A stretch of 64,000 bases of DNA from a bacterium (GTDB lineage Bacteria; CLD3; SB21), in assembly GCA_013360215.1 (NCBI GenBank), contig JABWCP010000005.1:124001-188000 (forward strand), read 5' to 3'. Below the pieces are notes generated by a model. That model worked only from the letters and a program-made list of their open reading frames with translations, was not told where the DNA came from and searched no databases. The translations under genes were made by a program, and so were the position numbers. Position 1 is the first letter of the stretch, and each line of letters starts with the position of its first letter. Of this stretch, positions 43,371 through 60,053 are shown piece after piece.

Positions 43371-45428
43371 ATGGCACATGACGCTCAAGCGGGCTCTTCG
43401 ACGACGGGTTCGCACCAATTCACGCCTTACATCGCACCGGAACACAATGTACCGGAGTTTACGGCTAAAGCGCTGATCCTCGGTGCGCTTTTCGGTATCA
43501 TCTTTGGCGCGGCAACGGTCTATCTTGCGCTCAAAGCAGGACTCACCGTATCCGCTTCCATTCCTATCGCTGTTCTGGCGATCTCATTGGGACGCAAACT
43601 TTTTAAAACCACGATTCTTGAAAACAACATCATTCAGACCGGTGGATCGGCAGGCGAATCCATCGCTGCCGGTGTGGTTTTTACGTTGCCCGGATTTCTC
43701 TTTCTCAGCGCTGAAAGCATGGGACCGAGTTATTTCAACTATTGGACAATTTTTGTATTAGCCATGTTCGGCGGTATTTTAGGAACGTTGATGATGGTGC
43801 CGCTGCGCCGACCGTTGATCGTACAGGAACACGGCGTACTTCCTTATCCGGAAGGAACCGCTTGCGCATCCGTTTTGGTTGCCGGCGAAAAAGGCGGTGA
43901 CTTTTCCAAAACGGCGTATCAAGGTCTTGGCTTTGCATTCATTTATGCATTCTTCCAGAAAGTATTTCACTTCATCGCCGAAACACCGGCTTGGGTCACA
44001 CAACAAACCAATAAATTTTTTCCTTCCGCCACGGTAAATGGTGAAATCACGCCGGAATACATGGGTGTAGGCTATATCATCGGACCGCGCATTGCCGGGG
44101 TGCTTGTAGCCGGCGGTGTGCTCGCATGGCTCGGTTTGATACCGCTGTTAGCATCACTGGTTCCTGCCGCAACGATAGCCGAACAACTTGTCAAACTCGG
44201 TTATTTGCCGGATATCCTCACCGCAGGCGGACCGGGCGGCTGGGATCCTGCTACGCAAACTTTTGGCAGTACCGCTACAGCCGTCTATCGTGCGTATGTG
44301 CGCCAGATCGGCGCCGGCGCTGTCGCCGCAGGCGGATTTATTACATTGATCAAAACGCTTCCCACGATCGTAAGCTCTTTTAAAGGCAGTGTCGCCTCGC
44401 TGAAAAACAAACAATCCGAAGAATCCGTGCGTCGTACGGAACGTGATCTGTCGTTTGGAACAGTAATCGCCGGTTCGCTCGGATTAATAGTTCTTATCGC
44501 CATCCTCCCCATTATCCCGGGCGATTCGATCATCAGCAAAATTGTGTTAGGTTTATTGATTATTGTATTTGGTTTTTTCTTCGTAACGGTATCAAGCCGT
44601 ATCGTCGGCATCATCGGTTCGTCATCCAATCCGATTTCCGGTATGACCATCGCCACCCTCATGGGCACAGCTTTAGTTTTTATCGGTGTAGGTTGGACGG
44701 GCAGTTTATATGAACCGATGGCACTTGTCGTCGGAGGTATGATCTGTATCGCAGCCGCTAACGCCGGTGCGACATCCCAGGATCTTAAAACCGGTTACAT
44801 CGTTGGCGCGACACCGAAGTATCAGCAGATTGCACTTTTTGTCGGCGCGATTGCCAGCTCCGCGATGATCGGATGGACGGTGCAAATCCTTGATACTCCG
44901 ACTTCCGAAATGGCCGCACAAGGCATCCAGCATGCGATCGGCACAGAAAAATACCCGGCACCCCAGGGAACATTGATGGCTACCTTGATCAAAGGTTTGT
45001 TATCATTTAACCTTGATTGGCAGTTTGTTCTTGTCGGCGCATTTGTAGCGGTGACGATGGAACTCTGCGGCGTCAAGTCGTTATCGTTTGCCGTTGGTGC
45101 ATACTTACCTCTTTCGACGACGCTTCCTATTTTTGCCGGTGGCGCCATCAAAGGTATTGCCGATTGGAATCGTTCACGTAAGGGCGAGTCGGAAGAAGAT
45201 GCGGAACTTGGCAAAGGCAGTCTCTTTGCGACAGGTCTTGTTGCCGGCGGTGCGCTCTTTGGCGTCATCGTTGCCATCGCAACTGTGTTTGCCGAAGACT
45301 TCATGAAATCCATCAATATGGAACATGCTTTCTCCGGTATTTTGGGCCAGGCCGGTTATGAAATTTTCGGTGTTATCTGTTTTGCTATCATGGGCATTAC
45401 ACTGTACCGGGTTGCAATGAAAAAGTAA
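43371..45428 (+). CDS. OPT family oligopeptide transporter
   Basis: YLALKAGLTVSASIP, ENNIIQT, LPYPEG, SSNPISG, QDLKTG, PAPQG.LMA. Confidence 0.93.
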   Translation: MAHDAQAGSSTTGSHQFTPYIAPEHNVPEFTAKALILGALFGIIFGAATVYLALKAGLTVSASIPIAVLAISLGRKLFKTTILENNIIQTGGSAGESIAAGVVFTLPGFLFLSAESMGPSYFNYWTIFVLAMFGGILGTLMMVPLRRPLIVQEHGVLPYPEGTACASVLVAGEKGGDFSKTAYQGLGFAFIYAFFQKVFHFIAETPAWVTQQTNKFFPSATVNGEITPEYMGVGYIIGPRIAGVLVAGGVLAWLGLIPLLASLVPAATIAEQLVKLGYLPDILTAGGPGGWDPATQTFGSTATAVYRAYVRQIGAGAVAAGGFITLIKTLPTIVSSFKGSVASLKNKQSEESVRRTERDLSFGTVIAGSLGLIVLIAILPIIPGDSIISKIVLGLLIIVFGFFFVTVSSRIVGIIGSSSNPISGMTIATLMGTALVFIGVGWTGSLYEPMALVVGGMICIAAANAGATSQDLKTGYIVGATPKYQQIALFVGAIASSAMIGWTVQILDTPTSEMAAQGIQHAIGTEKYPAPQGTLMATLIKGLLSFNLDWQFVLVGAFVAVTMELCGVKSLSFAVGAYLPLSTTLPIFAGGAIKGIADWNRSRKGESEEDAELGKGSLFATGLVAGGALFGVIVAIATVFAEDFMKSINMEHAFSGILGQAGYEIFGVICFAIMGITLYRVAMKK

Positions 45429-45444
45429 GTGCCGTGAACTGTTT

Positions 45445-45473
45445 TTGACTTTATAGAAAACATTACTTATTAT
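45445..45473 (+). promoter_or_regulatory. Putative sigma70 promoter for leader peptide-phhA
   Basis: TTGACT-17 nt-TATTAT. The predicted start site falls at or next to ATG 45481. Confidence 0.6.
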
Positions 45474-45480
45474 TTGAGAC

Positions 45481-45570
45481 ATGAAAACAGCACCTATACA
45501 TATTGAAACATCGTTTTATTATTACTTTTATCGCAACGGATCCCCGCCTTTGGAGATGCGATTAAGGTAG
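45481..45570 (+). CDS. Putative Tyr/Phe-sensing attenuator leader peptide (29 aa)
   Basis: MKTAPIHIETSFYYYFYRNGSPPLEMRLR*, six consecutive Phe/Tyr codons, followed by a terminator and phhA. Confidence 0.8.
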   Translation: MKTAPIHIETSFYYYFYRNGSPPLEMRLR

Positions 45571-45591
45571 TTTTTATTTTTAAAATCACCG

Positions 45592-45626
45592 ACCCGTTTC
45601 CCCAAAGGAAACGGGTTTTTTATTTT
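45592..45626 (+). terminator. Attenuator terminator upstream of phhA
   Basis: ACCCGTTTCC-CCAAA-GGAAACGGGT followed by TTTTTATTTT. Confidence 0.85.
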
Positions 45627-45651
45627 CACCCTTTAATGAAAGGAAAACGCC

Positions 45652-46401
45652 ATGACTTTGGAAAATGAAAACCACACAACGGAAGAACTCGAAGTTTGGA
45701 GACTTTTGTTCGAACGCCAATCGTCACTGCTGCACCATACGGCATGCCAAACGTTTTTGGAAGGACTCACCGCATTGGATTTTCAACCGGACGCCATTCC
45801 TCATTTGAAATCCATCAATGCAAAACTTCGGGATATGACCGGTTGGTCGCTCACGGTAGTACCCGGCATCGTTGAGGATGCGATTTTTTTTGAAATGCTG
45901 TCGCGTAAAACATTTCCCGTTACAGGATGGTTGCGATCCAAAAAACAACTTCAGTATATCGAGGAGCCGGATATGTTTCATGATGTATTCGGACACGTCC
46001 CCATGCTAACCGATAAACAATTTTGCGGTTTCTTGGAAGGATTGAGCCGCATTGCCTTAGCCTATCCCAACAACACCTTTGTTATTGAACGCCTCGTACG
46101 TATGTATTGGTTTACGGTCGAATTCGGTTTGGTACGTGAATCCGATAACGTCAAGATTTGCGGCGCAGGAATCCTTTCATCCATCGGCGAAACGCTGTAT
46201 TGTCTCAGTGGCAAACCGCCCGTTGTGGAGTTCGATTTACATACCGTATTTGAAATGCCTTTCCGAAAGGATCGTTTTCAAGATCGGTATGTGTTGATCA
46301 ATGATTTTGAGCAGCTATTTCGATCCGTGAATCAAATGGAAGAAACTTTGTTGCGTTTGCAAAGACAAATTCAACTTCAGGTTTTATCATGGAGTTGTTG
46401 A
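45652..46401 (+). CDS. phhA: Phenylalanine 4-monooxygenase
   Basis: EPDMFHDVFGHVP (two Fe-ligand His), YWFTVEFG (Glu ligand), GAGILSS.GE. Confidence 0.93.
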   Translation: MTLENENHTTEELEVWRLLFERQSSLLHHTACQTFLEGLTALDFQPDAIPHLKSINAKLRDMTGWSLTVVPGIVEDAIFFEMLSRKTFPVTGWLRSKKQLQYIEEPDMFHDVFGHVPMLTDKQFCGFLEGLSRIALAYPNNTFVIERLVRMYWFTVEFGLVRESDNVKICGAGILSSIGETLYCLSGKPPVVEFDLHTVFEMPFRKDRFQDRYVLINDFEQLFRSVNQMEETLLRLQRQIQLQVLSWSC

Positions 46402-46472
46402 GCGATAAAACTGAAAACAATTGAAAAACACGTTTTTATGGCTAAATTTAGCACATTCAAAAAAGGTTACGG

Positions 46473-48470
46473 ATGAATTCAGCCAATAAATCAAACGAAA
46501 TCGAACGCATTGCGGACATGCTTCGACTGGAGATGAACAATCGTCCCAGCGAAGATTTTATTAAATCGTTTATTCGCCAAATAGACAGCCTTGCGCCCAA
46601 TGTATTACGGTATTTTCGCTCTACGCTCAGTCAGACTTTGATCGAACGCGAAAATCAAGGCAAAGGTCATCTTAAAATCGAAGCGCTTCTTGAGTTATTG
46701 GATTTATGCGATTTACAGGTGTGGCTTACTTCGGCAGGACTGCATGAAAAAGCCGCCCGTAATGTCGTCAAAGGATTAAAAAACCGATCCACGGAAGAAC
46801 TCAATAGAATCATTCACGGCAAACTCTACATCGAACACGATCGCACGGAATTACTGGAGTTCTTGGTTGATGCCGGTGTTGAAGGTGATGATGCCGAACA
46901 TTTTGTGAAGCTTGTTCGTGAGATGGATGTGTCCGTAACGGAAATTATTGACCGCATCTTCAAACTTAATTTTCTTGCCGAAAATGCCTTTCGGCAAGAA
47001 TCTTTGCGTGGTATGATGTCACTGAAAGAAATTGTGACATTATACTTATACTCGGTTTTACAAGTTACGATCAGTGACTATGTGCACGACGAAGAAACGA
47101 TAAGCGAAATAGCCGCGCGCCTTGCTTTATGTAACAATATGCGCCGTGAATTCGCTTTAGTTCAGCAATTAGAACGCTACTTTTTCAGCACTACATCCGT
47201 AGAAGACACCCAAAACAAAACACGGGATTTTTGGATCAAACTGCTGAACGATTACGAAGTGAAGCTGGCGCTGGAGCAATATATCGGTGATGATAAATTG
47301 AAACGCTCCGATATGGAGATCGCCGACCTCTATGTAGAGGCCGGGCACATTTTTGACGATGTCAGCGAGATCAAAGATCAGACTTTAGCCGTTATTTCGA
47401 TCACCTACCGGCTTGATAATCCCGAAGAAACAGGTCATACTGTCGAAGAACTTCTTGCCATCATAGATCAGATCAAACTGCTCACCACCGAGATGGGCCC
47501 GCTGAGCATTATGACAAGAGATATTTTTTCGTTTTTTGAAATCCTCGGTGAATCCGATCACAAGAATCGTTTTTTCCACAAAACAATTATTTCATTCCGT
47601 TCGTTACTACGCAAATTAGTGGATCTCAACGAAAAAACAGGCGAGCGGGTGACATTGGATCAATTAATTCTCACCTATTTACACGCGCGCCTCAAAGCTT
47701 TTCTCGAAGATTACGAGGGCCCGCGGGAAAAACATCTTGAGTCTATCAAAACTCGCATTTCCCATTGCCATGATATGCACCGTCAGTTTGCCATCACGGA
47801 CCTGGTAGAAGAACATATCTTCGAAAATCCGGGATTGCTGTTGACGCTTTCCGAACCGGATAAATACTGGCCGGAACTCATCAATACATTTGAGCTCAAT
47901 ATCATGCTGGAGATTTATATCGAGCGCGAGTATTTGGTCTCCGGGCATCACGATATGACCAAGCGCCAGATGATGGAAACTTTGCAACAGCTCATCAACG
48001 GTATTCAGGAAATTTCCATCAAAAGCCTCAGCGTGGTATTTCTCACAGCGCATCTGGCCGCTATGCAAGATCACGCCAAAAGTAAAACCGTTTCTCTTGA
48101 CGAAATCATCCAGACCATCGCTCAACTTCGCAAAGATGCGGAGATGGCTGCCAAACAGATCACCGTGGAGTCGCGTGTCAAACACGATATTCTTACGACA
48201 TTGACTGAACGGCTATTCCGTTTGGAAACGATACAAAGCGCCATCACGCTTAGTAACACTACAGATATCATAGATCGCTTAGATGAAGTGATTGTCGGTT
48301 TACGTACACGCAGAGATAATCTGATCGGCGGGAAAATGGATGCCAAAGTTTTGCAGGATGACCTGAATACTTATCTTCATGACTCAAAAGTTGTCGGATT
48401 GATTGACGAAGTAGAAAGACTGTATAAAAACGAACTTGCCCAACAGGCCAAACTTGTTGCATCCAAATAG
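46473..48470 (+). CDS. Hypothetical all-helical protein with an internal duplication
   Basis: 665-aa ORF with no recognisable catalytic motif; two related segments start near aa 183 and aa 394. Confidence 0.75.
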   Translation: MNSANKSNEIERIADMLRLEMNNRPSEDFIKSFIRQIDSLAPNVLRYFRSTLSQTLIERENQGKGHLKIEALLELLDLCDLQVWLTSAGLHEKAARNVVKGLKNRSTEELNRIIHGKLYIEHDRTELLEFLVDAGVEGDDAEHFVKLVREMDVSVTEIIDRIFKLNFLAENAFRQESLRGMMSLKEIVTLYLYSVLQVTISDYVHDEETISEIAARLALCNNMRREFALVQQLERYFFSTTSVEDTQNKTRDFWIKLLNDYEVKLALEQYIGDDKLKRSDMEIADLYVEAGHIFDDVSEIKDQTLAVISITYRLDNPEETGHTVEELLAIIDQIKLLTTEMGPLSIMTRDIFSFFEILGESDHKNRFFHKTIISFRSLLRKLVDLNEKTGERVTLDQLILTYLHARLKAFLEDYEGPREKHLESIKTRISHCHDMHRQFAITDLVEEHIFENPGLLLTLSEPDKYWPELINTFELNIMLEIYIEREYLVSGHHDMTKRQMMETLQQLINGIQEISIKSLSVVFLTAHLAAMQDHAKSKTVSLDEIIQTIAQLRKDAEMAAKQITVESRVKHDILTTLTERLFRLETIQSAITLSNTTDIIDRLDEVIVGLRTRRDNLIGGKMDAKVLQDDLNTYLHDSKVVGLIDEVERLYKNELAQQAKLVASK

Positions 48471-56415: not shown

Positions 56416-56979
56416 TTAGTGTGCGGTACCCAAAGCCTGAAGTTTTAATGCGATGACTTCCGCTAAATTGGCCGCCTCCATATTCGGAGCAAACGTATCA
56501 TCCAATGCCTGAATTCTGTTAACCGCCCCCGGATAATTTCCCAACTGATAATAACAGCTGGCCTGAACCCATATCAGATCTTTATGTGTCACGCTGCGAT
56601 CAAGCGAGAGTTTGAACTCCGGTTTTTTTCGCAACACAAAGGCCGTTTTATCCAATGACTGCAAAAGACTCCCGGAACCCCACAGCGTAACACTCCAACC
56701 GGCATATCCGTCCGGTATCGAATCCAAAGCTGCTTCTGAAAAATATACATTCGCCGTATTCAGATCGTTGAGTCGCATCGCGGACCAACCCGCACCAACA
56801 CGCGCCGTCGAACCTTCGGTCGCGATCAAACTTTCATAACGACTTAGTGCTTCTTCATAATCACCGTCTTCAAACAACTGTTGCGCCTTTTCGATAGCCG
56901 TTTCATCTTTGGACGGGCAACCTGTAATCCAAAAAACGGAAACCAATAAAATCAAATAGCGGATAGATAAAGTTTTCAT
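56416..56979 (-). CDS. TPR-like lipoprotein
   Basis: Lipobox-like ITGC; helical TPR-like units (GDYEEA, GNYPGA). Confidence 0.65.
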   Translation of the reverse strand: MKTLSIRYLILLVSVFWITGCPSKDETAIEKAQQLFEDGDYEEALSRYESLIATEGSTARVGAGWSAMRLNDLNTANVYFSEAALDSIPDGYAGWSVTLWGSGSLLQSLDKTAFVLRKKPEFKLSLDRSVTHKDLIWVQASCYYQLGNYPGAVNRIQALDDTFAPNMEAANLAEVIALKLQALGTAH

Positions 56980-59900
56980 TTTACTAAAACCATTCTGCGT
57001 GTTTGTGTGAATGCGCCCGAACTTAAACGATACAGATATACGCCCGAAGCTACCGCGAGGCCTTTTTCGTTTTTACCGTCCCAAATTGTTTCAAAATTTC
57101 CAGCCGGTTTATATCCGCTGAAAAGTGTTCGCACTTCCTGCCCGAGCATATTATAAATTTTTAACGTCGTATGTCCCGGTTGTGAAATCGCAAAACGAAT
57201 GGTCGTGGACGGATTAAACGGATTTGGATAATTTTGATCAAGGGCAAATGTTTTCGGTTGCACGATATATTCGGGATCATAAAACACCGCGATACGTACA
57301 TTTTTATGAATGCGTGTTTCAACCGCGCCAAAGCGACCTTCTCCGGAAAGGCGTTGCCATTGATGATTTTCATAAGCATAGACACCGATACGCCCTTCAT
57401 CAAAATTTTCATCCGCCGCACGCAACGCGCTTAGATGATCCTGATATCGGACATGCACGGTAACTTCGGCTGAGGAAGCCGTATTCAGCACATTCACCGC
57501 ATCCGAAAGCGGGCGCAACAACATCGGGACATTCCCGGTTTCAGCTTGATCTAAAACAAGATATCCGCGTTGATTACCTTCAAAAACAAAATTACTGTAG
57601 GTTGTTTTTTTGTCCAAAGAAACTACCGTGTAACTTCGTCGAATCGTATCCTTATTTCCGGCAAGATCAAATACTTCACCCACGACCGGTATTACACCGA
57701 CAGATTCGATGCTGTAGTCGCCGAAATACACTCCGTTGTTTGACTCGATATCAATCACCTGTCCGTTGGCGGTAAGCGCGGCCGAAGCGATGGTTTCGTT
57801 ACTTCCCAATGCAAACCGAATACGCTGAAGTAACGGCGAAGATAATGCCGCCAGATATGCCACCGGCGCCGTATTGTCCTGCACTACGACACGGAATGTA
57901 TCCGATACCGTAAATTCACCGTCGGAAGCAATGATGCGTACGGAAACGTTACCAAAAAAATCCGCTGTACTGCGCAAATACAAGGAATCATTAGAAATCA
58001 ACGGGTCTACCCCATCGGCAAATTTGACGAACGAAAAAGTCAGCGCGGTATGGTCCGCATCATAAAATACGGTTGAAAGTTTTTTGATCAGAACCTTACC
58101 GAAATTTTGCGGCAGCGTCGTATCCGATATTGTCGCCAAACGCACGGGTCTGTCGTTAACCGGTACAATTTGCAAGACCAGCGTATCCTTGGCTGACAAA
58201 TCAGACAGATCCGTAGCTGAGAGATACAATTCCATCGAACCGGTCGAATCCTTTAGCGGCGTAACATACAACGTATCGCCGGAAATCGCTGCGACCGATT
58301 TGCTATTGGAAAGTAATACACCATACGTGACGGGTTCCAAATCCGGTTCCGAAAAAATCATCGGCAGATACAAAATCGCCGTACGGGCCGCATCCTCTTG
58401 TACACTCGTATCACGGGCTGCAAATATTCTACTCGGCGCATCATTGGCTGCTGTTACGGTAAAAAAAACAGTGTCGCGGATTTCCGTGTTGCCATCGGAT
58501 ACACGGATTTCAAGTGAAGCGCTTCCAAAAAAATCTCTATCCCCTTCCACGTACAACGAATCGTTAAGGATATAACCCTCGACGCCGGCATTTACTACAA
58601 AAGAAGAAAAATCAATCACACCATCATCCGGATCACTATAATAATCTGGCAAATAAACCATCGCACGATACGAAAAATCCTCCGCAAAACTGGTGTCCCG
58701 CAACAGCGACGTACGCGCCGGCGGATCGTTGATCGGAATGATTTGAAGTTGGAATGTGTCGCGATTGCTCAAAGGCGTGGGATCGGAAGCTTCGATGATG
58801 ACCTGGCTCTGACCGTTGAGGTTATTTTGTGACAAGGCATACAAACTGTCACCTGAAATACTCAACGCAACAAACGGAGACGGCGTATGCACTGAAAATG
58901 TCATTGTTTCACCATCCGCTTCATGAAACACCAATGGCAGATAGGCTAACAATTGTTTTCCAAAATCCTCTTGTAAATTTTTCGGCCCGATCGGAGTAGC
59001 TACTTTCGGCGCATCATTTTGTTGCGTTACCGTGACAAGGAGCGTATCGTATGCAAAGTTACCGGAATTATCCTGCGCTTCAACGATCACTTCAAACAGA
59101 CCGGATGAATCTTCAGATGAAAAGAACTCCAATGTGTTACCGGTGACCCACGCATCCGCTCCCGATACCAATGTACCGGCAGAAAAAGTAAGCGAACTAT
59201 TTTCCGGATCGGAAAAAATATCATGGAGGTTCGTTATGATCGTACGAGTGCCGCTATCTTCTGCAAATGTAGTATCCCGTATCATTTGTATCCGTTCGGG
59301 CGAACGGCTCAGCGTCGTCTGTTCACCGACAGCCGCGTCTGTCAAATAATCCGCATCACTCCCCGTGCCGTTATACGTGAAAACAGAAAAATAATATTTT
59401 ACTCCACGCGATAATCCGCTGATACTCACGGACGTTCCGCTGCCTGCAAAAACAGCGTAGGTATTACCGCCAAGATCCGTGCCGCTGCCAAACGTCGAAT
59501 TCGCTGTAATACTTTGACCGTCATTGGGTGCAAGCTCGATGAGCGCATCGGCGCGGACAAGTACCAAATGATAGTCGCCGTCACCACCCTGCCAAGCGAT
59601 GGTCATCGCCGAAGAATCAATCCCGCTAAATACGACATCCGATGGCGGCAATGTCGGTTCACTGAATGCGCACAAACCCGTTACGGCCAGTGTCTGTGTA
59701 ACACCGCTTTCATGTACGATCACACTGTCATACGATCCGGTAACCGAGGGCGCAAAACGCACATAAATTGTCGTAAGCTCAATTACCCCGCCGGTTTCAG
59801 GAAGTGTAATATTGGAACCAAACACGCCTCCGCTGGTTGTAGAGATTTCAAATCCATGCGGCGCATGTATTAATAAAGAACCGCTCAAACCCGTAGCCGA

Positions 59901-60053
59901 CACGGCATACGAAAACTCATCAGAAATCGCACCGGGCGCTGTAACCGGAAACGGTTGCAGGTCCCCTGAAAGTGAAATTTCCTGAGCCGACAGATACGAA
60001 CGAAGACCGCCCGCAAAAAACATTACAAATAAATACACTCGAATGTAGCGCAT
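56976..60053 (-). CDS. Large secreted/surface protein with FN3-like and tandem cadherin/Ig-like repeats and a T9SS/FlgD-type C-terminal domain
   Basis: Signal peptide, five units of about 96 aa (ED...D.D...D.F...V...NDAP), C-terminal FALDQNYPNPFNPSTTI...IYNMLGQEV...WDG...SGVYLY. Confidence 0.85.
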   Translation of the reverse strand: MRYIRVYLFVMFFAGGLRSYLSAQEISLSGDLQPFPVTAPGAISDEFSYAVSATGLSGSLLIHAPHGFEISTTSGGVFGSNITLPETGGVIELTTIYVRFAPSVTGSYDSVIVHESGVTQTLAVTGLCAFSEPTLPPSDVVFSGIDSSAMTIAWQGGDGDYHLVLVRADALIELAPNDGQSITANSTFGSGTDLGGNTYAVFAGSGTSVSISGLSRGVKYYFSVFTYNGTGSDADYLTDAAVGEQTTLSRSPERIQMIRDTTFAEDSGTRTIITNLHDIFSDPENSSLTFSAGTLVSGADAWVTGNTLEFFSSEDSSGLFEVIVEAQDNSGNFAYDTLLVTVTQQNDAPKVATPIGPKNLQEDFGKQLLAYLPLVFHEADGETMTFSVHTPSPFVALSISGDSLYALSQNNLNGQSQVIIEASDPTPLSNRDTFQLQIIPINDPPARTSLLRDTSFAEDFSYRAMVYLPDYYSDPDDGVIDFSSFVVNAGVEGYILNDSLYVEGDRDFFGSASLEIRVSDGNTEIRDTVFFTVTAANDAPSRIFAARDTSVQEDAARTAILYLPMIFSEPDLEPVTYGVLLSNSKSVAAISGDTLYVTPLKDSTGSMELYLSATDLSDLSAKDTLVLQIVPVNDRPVRLATISDTTLPQNFGKVLIKKLSTVFYDADHTALTFSFVKFADGVDPLISNDSLYLRSTADFFGNVSVRIIASDGEFTVSDTFRVVVQDNTAPVAYLAALSSPLLQRIRFALGSNETIASAALTANGQVIDIESNNGVYFGDYSIESVGVIPVVGEVFDLAGNKDTIRRSYTVVSLDKKTTYSNFVFEGNQRGYLVLDQAETGNVPMLLRPLSDAVNVLNTASSAEVTVHVRYQDHLSALRAADENFDEGRIGVYAYENHQWQRLSGEGRFGAVETRIHKNVRIAVFYDPEYIVQPKTFALDQNYPNPFNPSTTIRFAISQPGHTTLKIYNMLGQEVRTLFSGYKPAGNFETIWDGKNEKGLAVASGVYLYRLSSGAFTQTRRMVLVK

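Follow-up and report, generated by a model that had tools for sequence, protein, structure and literature searches.

A predicted tyrosine-sensing leader-peptide attenuator in front of the phenylalanine hydroxylase gene phhA in a CLD3 bacterium and in Bacteroidota

We analyzed a 64,000-nucleotide stretch of a bacterial genome (GTDB lineage CLD3; SB21; assembly GCA_013360215.1, contig JABWCP010000005.1, positions 124,001 to 188,000 of the forward strand), called the window here, and focused on the phenylalanine hydroxylase gene phhA and the sequence that precedes it. The region upstream of phhA is very probably a classical ribosome-mediated leader-peptide attenuator, which senses charged tRNA-Tyr and controls phhA. 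We describe the anatomy of this element, its conservation, the covariation of both of its helices (terminator and antiterminator) and the gene content of the genomes that carry it, and we infer from sequence comparison where transcription starts, that the leader is translated, that ribosomes stall on it and that it responds to tyrosine. The genome of the window is called G000, a relative from the same family is called G004, and identifiers beginning with L denote phhA or attenuator loci. Positions without a locus identifier are those of the window.

The leader peptide open reading frame (ORF) comprises 29 codons on the plus strand (45481..45570; MKTAPIHIETSFYYYFYRNGSPPLEMRLR) and starts with the ATG at 45481. 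Codons 12–17 (45514..45531, plus strand) are TTT TAT TAT TAC TTT TAT and encode FYYYFY; ribosomes would stall on these codons if charged tRNA-Tyr runs low. A promoter-like site of the sigma-70 type lies ahead of the ORF on the same strand (45445..45473), with TTGACT at 45445–45450, a 17-nt spacer and TATTAT at 45468–45473 (10 of 12 matches). Behind the ORF, an intrinsic terminator (45591..45627, plus strand) consists of an 11-bp stem with six G-C pairs and a 5-nt loop at 45591–45617, followed by a T-run. It lies 30 nt ahead of phhA, the regulated gene (45652..46401, plus strand). Direct reading of the sequence places a Shine-Dalgarno-like AAGGA in front of phhA (45640..45644, plus strand), and AAGGA also precedes phhA in G004; no such box is present at the leader ORF of the window. 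The initial annotation of this DNA, made from the letters alone, had named the 29-residue ORF with its FYYYFY core, the promoter and a terminator with a U-tract before phhA, and all three were found in place.

The RNA can be divided into segments that compete for partners. Segment 1, the left arm of a protector (45521..45535, plus strand; leader nt 41–55), overlaps the Tyr codons and pairs with 45557–45571 in minimum-free-energy folds in the absence of a ribosome. Segment 2 (45547..45576, plus strand) is made of CCTTTGGAGATGCG and the next bases, and it pairs either with segment 1 to give the protector or with segment 3 to give the antiterminator. Segment 3 (45584..45608, plus strand) takes in the bases before the terminator, the left arm and loop of the terminator and the first two nucleotides of its right arm, as far as CCAAAGG. 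When tyrosine is plentiful, the ribosome would reach the leader stop codon and cover segment 2, the terminator at 45591–45617 would form, and transcription would stop about 30 nt before phhA. If the leader is not translated, pairing of segments 1 and 2 would likewise lead to termination. When Tyr-tRNA is scarce, the ribosome would stall at the Tyr codons (45517–45531), covering segment 1 and leaving segment 2 free. Free segment 2 would pair with segment 3 as it emerges, no terminator would form, and RNA polymerase would enter phhA. The PhhA product would then convert phenylalanine, presumably obtained from peptides, to tyrosine.

The 181-nt leader region folds with −42.2 kcal/mol (z = −3.46), and none of 200 shuffled sequences folded as well. 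RNAalifold recovered the terminator on 19 aligned leaders, with compensatory changes in 8 of its 11 pairs. The antiterminator (45547–45560 with 45595–45608) and the protector (TCGCA, 45531–45535, with TGCGA, 45557–45561), both of which had been proposed in the initial annotation, appear in the computed folds of the window, and the antiterminator also covaries across loci. Pairing between segments 2 and 3 was judged by per-sequence duplex energy; the leader subfamilies sit one column apart in the alignment (A3). For each locus we took the best duplex between two stretches, one beginning at the Tyr run and reaching slightly beyond the stop codon, the other comprising the left arm and loop of the terminator together with the preceding 12 nt. 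The cognate duplexes averaged −19.19 kcal/mol versus −14.81 kcal/mol for swapped partners, and the cognate mean was not matched in any of 10,000 permutations; because relatives share sequence, this swap control is conservative, not lenient. The duplex of the window itself has −16.6 kcal/mol, compared with −10.2 ± 3.0 kcal/mol for shuffled partners. Compensatory pairs can be read directly: CCTTTGG/CCAAAGG in the window, CTTTCGG/CCGAAAG in G004, GCGTTCCGGA/TCCGGAATGC in L006 and AGGAATCGG/CCGATTCCT in L030. A protector was recognized in Bacteroidota leaders by eye only, as a small CCGA...TCGG hairpin in alignment A3, and the G004 equivalent of the protector arm pairs elsewhere.

In constrained folding the modeled leader shows the alternative folds of classical attenuator logic. 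With no ribosome, leader nt 41–55 pair with nt 77–91 and the terminator forms. Masking nt 1–58, which mimics a ribosome at Tyr15, makes the antiterminator the most stable structure of the full leader (−25.4 kcal/mol). It forms as well (−18.8 kcal/mol) when nt 1–64 are masked and the RNA reaches only to nt 128, a point at which most of the right arm of the terminator is still untranscribed. With nt 73–103 masked, as by a ribosome that has arrived at the stop codon, the terminator formed. The last Tyr codon ends at leader nt 51, segment 2 begins at nt 67 and is located 8–21 nt ahead of the stop codon (nt 88–90), and the terminator begins at nt 111. In these models, such spacing would leave segment 2 free when the ribosome stalls and covered when it reaches the stop codon.

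The same arrangement is found in the relative that also has phhA. Among 14 other genomes of the family, phhA was present in one, G004, and the two PhhA proteins are 50% identical. The G004 leader has 28 codons with the core YYYVYYY, followed by a 14-bp terminator and a T-run, and a promoter-like site (TTGCAA-17-TATTAT) lies 10 nt from the leader ATG. The gene ahead of it differs from that in the window and is followed by a terminator of its own (L002 2583–2557), so that the order is upstream-gene terminator, promoter-like site, leader, second terminator. Homology between the window and G004 leaders is evident in the second half of the ORF and in the A/T-rich spacer. Outside this lineage, the nearest PhhA proteins are approximately 50% identical and nearly all from Bacteroidota by name; a metagenome scan for closer relatives found nothing above 54% identity.

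We searched these loci for a short ORF with at least four Tyr in seven residues within 480 nt upstream of phhA. Such an ORF was present in 16 of 80 genome loci, compared with 1 of 80 reverse-complemented regions, 0 of 76 regions far upstream and 0 of 76 downstream; it was also present in 25 of the 75 metagenome loci with at least 250 nt of upstream sequence. The Tyr-rich ORFs that the initial annotation expected at phhA orthologues are thus there, in G004 and in both collections. A covariance model built from the 19 aligned leaders (R1) scored the window at 76.9 bits and G004 at 82.2 bits. At E < 1e-3 it matched 22 of 80 genome loci, nearly all of them from Bacteroidota, of which 17 were training rows and 5 (of 63 others) were new. 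At E ≤ 1e-4 it matched 30 of 78 metagenome loci, none of them in the training set. Culturable Cytophagales with the element include Fulvivirga sediminis (L045), Pontibacter locisalis (L020), Marivirga sericea (L031) and Roseivirga seohaensis (L056). In the other leaders, runs of four to seven Tyr stand at the aligned position. The two Phe codons of the window sensor are not conserved, and G004 has Val at one of these positions. The phhA leaders of Bacteroidota are Tyr-only or combine Tyr with His or Trp, and most have four to seven Tyr with no Phe in the run. Judged from these codons, the signal is mainly tyrosine and not phenylalanine. Of the joint Tyr/Phe sensing put forward initially, the tyrosine part is borne out by the conserved runs and the phenylalanine part is not.

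The codons of the leader follow the genes behind it. A class-I glutamine amidotransferase gene follows phhA in 15 of the 34 leader-bearing loci in which the next gene was tested, and all four that were checked are HisH equivalogs. Leaders of these phhA-hisH loci carry a mean of 2.93 His codons, with two or more in 14 of 15; the other 19 leaders carry a mean of 0.53, with two or more in 2 of 19. These counts are descriptive and not a statistical test, as the loci are related to one another. The phhA-hisH loci (L079 1311–2849, L056 1316–2830, L083 1235–2904, L026 1252–2937 and 11 more) include many from Cytophagales, and their leaders, in which His codons are mixed with Tyr codons, suggest a phhA-his operon under dual Tyr/His attenuation in this order. 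In three metagenome loci phhA is followed by the 3-dehydroquinate synthase gene aroB, with the genes overlapping (−4 or −1 nt) and a Tyr-rich leader in front (L146 821–2828, L141 977–3323 and L154 1286–2885); L146 and L141 have two Trp codons each as well. Attenuators on the same scaffold occur elsewhere in the same genomes; some carry His runs and precede hisH or hisG, others carry alternating Phe and Tyr codons (F/Y) and precede DAHP synthase genes (L180 1501–1642 on the minus strand, L183 1501–1641, L181 1501–1633 and L182 1501–1634, from Pontibacter, Fulvivirga, Marivirga and Roseivirga genomes). R1 cross-matches these His and F/Y attenuators with 43.5–66 bits. The sensor codons may have been rewritten to suit the next genes: Tyr alone for phhA, Tyr+His for phhA-hisH, Tyr+Trp for phhA-aroB and F/Y for DAHP synthase.

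Loci without the Tyr leader were also inspected. From 108 R1-negative loci, 66 had a gap of 250 nt or less to the upstream gene, and 47 upstream genes drawn from these were tested. Ten encode DAHP synthase (L007, L018, L022, L024, L028, L032, L040, L051, L066 and L115), five trpA (L058, L074, L085, L100 and L171), two tyrA (L057 and L159) and two hisIE; only 3 of the 47 were HPPD-like or HgmA-like. The phhA genes without the leader are thus often found right behind DAHP synthase, trpA or tyrA, in aromatic biosynthesis operons and not in catabolic ones. As a separate observation, a Fulvivirga genome (G041, contig C7, 37130–39738; L175, L185) has on one strand a Tyr leader, phhA, an aminotransferase gene and, no more than approximately 2.5 kb further on, tyrA. 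This stretch may be a tyrosine operon under a single attenuator.

The hexamer resembling a −10 box is separated from the leader ATG by 7 nt in the window and by 10 nt in G004, and the space in the window is too short for a Shine-Dalgarno sequence. Transcription would start at the leader ATG or a few bases from it. Of 52 Bacteroidota loci, 31 have a strict TAnnTTTG box no more than 10 nt upstream of a leader ATG, and the commonest gap is 5 nt (19 loci). In passages of a study of Flavobacterium psychrophilum, this box spans −12 to −5 from the start site, and leaderless mRNAs make up only 5.5% (PMC9723704). A box in this position followed by a gap of 4–5 nt would put the A of the ATG at +1 or +2. 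It is thus plausible that the leader ORF starts at or near the 5′ end of the transcript, that is, that it is leaderless. The initial annotation had called it probably leaderless; the promoter geometry in the window, in G004 and in the Bacteroidota loci speaks for this, and the start site itself is still a prediction. In the 31 Bacteroidota loci the TAnnTTTG (−7) box, 4–10 nt ahead of the ATG, implies leaderless or 1-nt-leader translation of these regulatory ORFs.

Gene content was examined with family searches, each of which found its target in control genomes known to have it. The G000 assembly is 100% complete with 0.53% contamination. No match in G000 was obtained for prephenate/arogenate dehydrogenase (tyrA, PF02153), as the initial annotation had asked, nor for prephenate dehydratase (pheA, PF00800) or homogentisate dioxygenase (hmgA, PF04209), and the search for 4-hydroxyphenylpyruvate dioxygenase (4HPPD, TIGR01263) yielded no more than a fragment of 29.8 bits (cut-off 277). 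Chorismate synthase (PF01264) and pterin-4a-carbinolamine dehydratase (PF01329) were found. Because prephenate dehydrogenase and prephenate dehydratase gave no match, PhhA is the only recognizable source of tyrosine in G000; no route for tyrosine degradation via homogentisate was found there. In G000–G019, most genomes of the family, order and class that were searched gave no match for either prephenate enzyme. Among 20 relatives only G005 and G009, both of the same family, had tyrA over the cut-off; in G004 pheA was found and tyrA was not. On this gene content, the lineage may be largely auxotrophic for phenylalanine and tyrosine. Five leader-carrying Cytophagales genomes had tyrA over the cut-off in three cases and PF04209 in none; carriers with no tyrA over the cut-off include G044 and G045. 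Echinicola vietnamensis is a species of the Cytophagales. According to the passages on phenylalanine hydroxylase (PAH) in the GapMind study, which draws on fitness data, PAH is a tyrosine-biosynthetic route in E. vietnamensis, Dyella japonica and Legionella pneumophila, and prephenate/arogenate dehydrogenase was not identified in Dyella and Legionella (PMC7311316).

Several observations weigh against a tyrosine attenuator in front of phhA. The gene is patchy and was found in 4 of the 41 genomes searched, G000 included. The window antiterminator is among the weaker ones, and 3.5% of shuffles equal its −16.6 kcal/mol. With nt 1–64 masked and the full RNA present, the equilibrium fold is still the terminator (−24.3 kcal/mol); read-through must therefore rely on the order of folding, as it does in other attenuators. 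The PAH route needs oxygen (PMC7311316). Through its two Phe codons, the sensor would switch on a phenylalanine-consuming enzyme when phenylalanine is short, which is counterproductive where pheA was not detected. Finally, the promoter-like match is at the right place but on its own no better than chance, with five such sites in the region compared with 3.6 ± 1.7 in shuffled sequences; the promoter was assigned because of its position and conservation, not its scan score.

This last point would also suit another explanation, in which the hairpin merely terminates the upstream gene and the Tyr-rich ORF arose by chance and regulates nothing. The upstream gene encodes an OPT-family oligopeptide transporter (43371..45428, plus strand; PF03169, E = 1e-79), its stop codon is only 17 nt from the −35 box, and in the window sequence no separate terminator for it was found ahead of the leader promoter. 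A contig from RNA libraries (X1, record 2) spans the OPT 3′ end and runs into the leader, though a contig is no proof of a single transcript. In G004, however, leader and terminator follow a different gene, and because that gene has a terminator of its own, the leader terminator is not simply the end of an upstream gene, a possibility that the initial annotation had raised against itself. The recurrence of the Tyr-rich ORF at phhA loci and its near absence from the control regions, together with the covariation of segments 2 and 3, are likewise not what a chance frame predicts. In addition, we scanned both strands of the genome (3.72 Mb) for a short ATG-initiated ORF with a seven-residue stretch rich in one amino acid, followed by a hairpin and T-run. 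Of the 13 matches, the window leader is the only one of Tyr type. The comparative data have largely refuted this explanation, to which we give almost no weight. Of the 12 other candidates of the scan, two were followed up; they lie upstream of mutS and of a TonB-dependent receptor gene and were not convincing as attenuators; four weak R1 matches in G000 resembled plain terminators on inspection.

A conditional terminator could also be set by a protein, by a small molecule bound to the RNA or by sequence-specific arrest on the nascent peptide. There is a weak, sub-threshold Rfam likeness to PyrR and other leaders (23.1 bits, gathering score 54), and the peptide shows some conservation towards its C-terminus (FG/IG-x-G motif). 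Rfam searches of the window and of 10 related loci, however, gave no family at or above its gathering score, and the codons conserved at the C-terminal end overlap segment 2, the covarying partner of segment 3; because of this overlap, RNA pairing explains their conservation. The Tyr run is invariant across loci, and His or Trp codons are added where his or aro genes follow, which a fixed ligand would not predict. We consider such a switch improbable. It is also quite improbable, and somewhat more so, that the leader reports phenylalanine and tyrosine jointly, or general translation capacity, rather than tyrosine specifically. Two of the six sensor codons in the window are Phe, and mixed F/Y leaders do precede DAHP synthase genes in Cytophagales. 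Phe is nevertheless not a conserved part of phhA leaders, as the YYYVYYY core of G004 and the Phe-free runs of most Bacteroidota illustrate, and to induce a phenylalanine-consuming enzyme under phenylalanine shortage makes no metabolic sense where pheA was not found. We therefore retain a ribosome-mediated attenuator responding to Tyr-tRNA as much the most probable reading of the element.

The regulated gene encodes a protein of 249 residues that matches PF00351 (E = 8e-48) and scores 247.4 bits against the NCBIfam equivalog for phenylalanine 4-monooxygenase (NF008877, cut-off 247). Among 18 homologues H110 and H115 are invariant and E157 is nearly so; we take these three to be the metal-binding residues. 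An ORF of 665 residues begins 72 nt downstream of phhA (46473..48470, plus strand); it has no Pfam or NCBIfam match, and a search of a protein atlas gave no usable match. Further along, a protein of 1025 residues (56976–60053, minus strand) belongs to a cluster annotated as 'T9SS type A sorting domain-containing protein'. The type IX secretion system (T9SS) typically occurs in the Fibrobacterota-Chlorobiota-Bacteroidota group. On 45100–46700, contigs of four RNA-library runs (X1, X4, X6 and X10) cover phhA and the OPT 3′ end as far as 45547, and none spans 45548–45619; such contigs show neither starts, ends nor strand.

The textbook leader-peptide attenuators respond to Trp, Phe, His, Leu, Thr and Ile/Val, and the classical enterobacterial cases, trpL-trpEDCBA, pheL-pheA, hisL and thrL, follow the Yanofsky model. 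The window leader shares with these the clustered codons, an antiterminator, a terminator and a putative protector built from four segments, and the position of the terminator before a gene for the amino acid that is sensed. Unlike them, it would sense tyrosine, its target is an aromatic amino acid hydroxylase rather than an enzyme of the chorismate pathway, and its ORF, which has no Shine-Dalgarno sequence, apparently begins right where the transcript does. The mechanism is an ordinary one; what is new is which amino acid would be sensed, which enzyme would be controlled and that the start is probably leaderless.

We looked for earlier descriptions of this arrangement. A permissive Rfam 15 search of 45300–45800 gave nothing near a gathering score (Phe_leader, RF01859, 17.3 bits against 55; Trp_leader, RF00513, 17.3 against 41), and the 10 related loci gave 0 matches. 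Full-text literature searches, with subscription journals outside their range, gave no description of a tyrosine leader-peptide attenuator or of attenuation of phhA; the initial annotation, too, knew of no such arrangement for this gene. A part of PMC1173090 treats phhA and PhhR and lists predicted attenuators for tyrA only, and PMC2965389 and PMC4833913 mention neither hydroxylase nor tyrosine nor phenylalanine.

Other leader-peptide attenuators occur in Bacteroidota. Weinberg reportedly described a Bacteroid-trp motif in 2010. The F. psychrophilum study has, in part of its text, clues to leader-peptide attenuation upstream of amino acid biosynthesis operons; its main-text passage does not name a phhA or Tyr version, its supplements being outside that check (PMC9723704). 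The His and F/Y attenuators of Bacteroidota share a scaffold with the phhA leader, namely a segment 2 of the TTCGGA type and TTCCGAAA in the left arm and loop of the terminator, but they precede his, trp or aro genes whereas the window leader precedes phhA. In mycobacteria, polycysteine leaderless short ORFs have been presented as cysteine-responsive attenuators (bioRxiv 10.1101/834739). These share with the window a leaderless short ORF rich in the codons of one amino acid and, downstream, genes for that same amino acid; they belong to another phylum and another amino acid, and in the window an intrinsic terminator and antiterminator are evident.

The same enzyme is controlled differently in Pseudomonas aeruginosa, where phhABC is activated by PhhR, a sigma-54-dependent regulator of the TyrR family (PMC1173090). 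PhhR is a protein activator of a catabolic operon, whereas the window would hold a switch of RNA and ribosome with biosynthetic logic, in a genome where no homogentisate dioxygenase or true HPPD was found. In Dyella and Legionella, PAH supplies tyrosine and no prephenate or arogenate dehydrogenase was identified, the situation met in G000 as well. The PAH passages of PMC7311316 describe no regulation, and the attenuator predicted here would supply the logic expected of a biosynthetic role.

Taken further, the element could be an old leaderless attenuator cassette, re-programmable by codon choice and common to this uncultured T9SS-bearing lineage and Bacteroidota, which in G000 would alone control the supply of tyrosine and would couple peptide scavenging to the conversion of phenylalanine to tyrosine behind a peptide-uptake gene. 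We offer this only tentatively, at somewhat less than even chances. If it is true, PAH would be primarily a regulated tyrosine-biosynthetic enzyme, not a catabolic one, across much of the bacterial tree. The regulatory logic is an independent marker, pointing to bacterial PAH as tyrosine-biosynthetic in many lineages, in agreement with the fitness data for Echinicola, Dyella and Legionella in the PAH passages of PMC7311316. It would also improve the prediction of auxotrophy for uncultured bacteria that apparently have no tyrA, and the small, probably leaderless regulatory ORF lends itself to tests in culturable Cytophagales.

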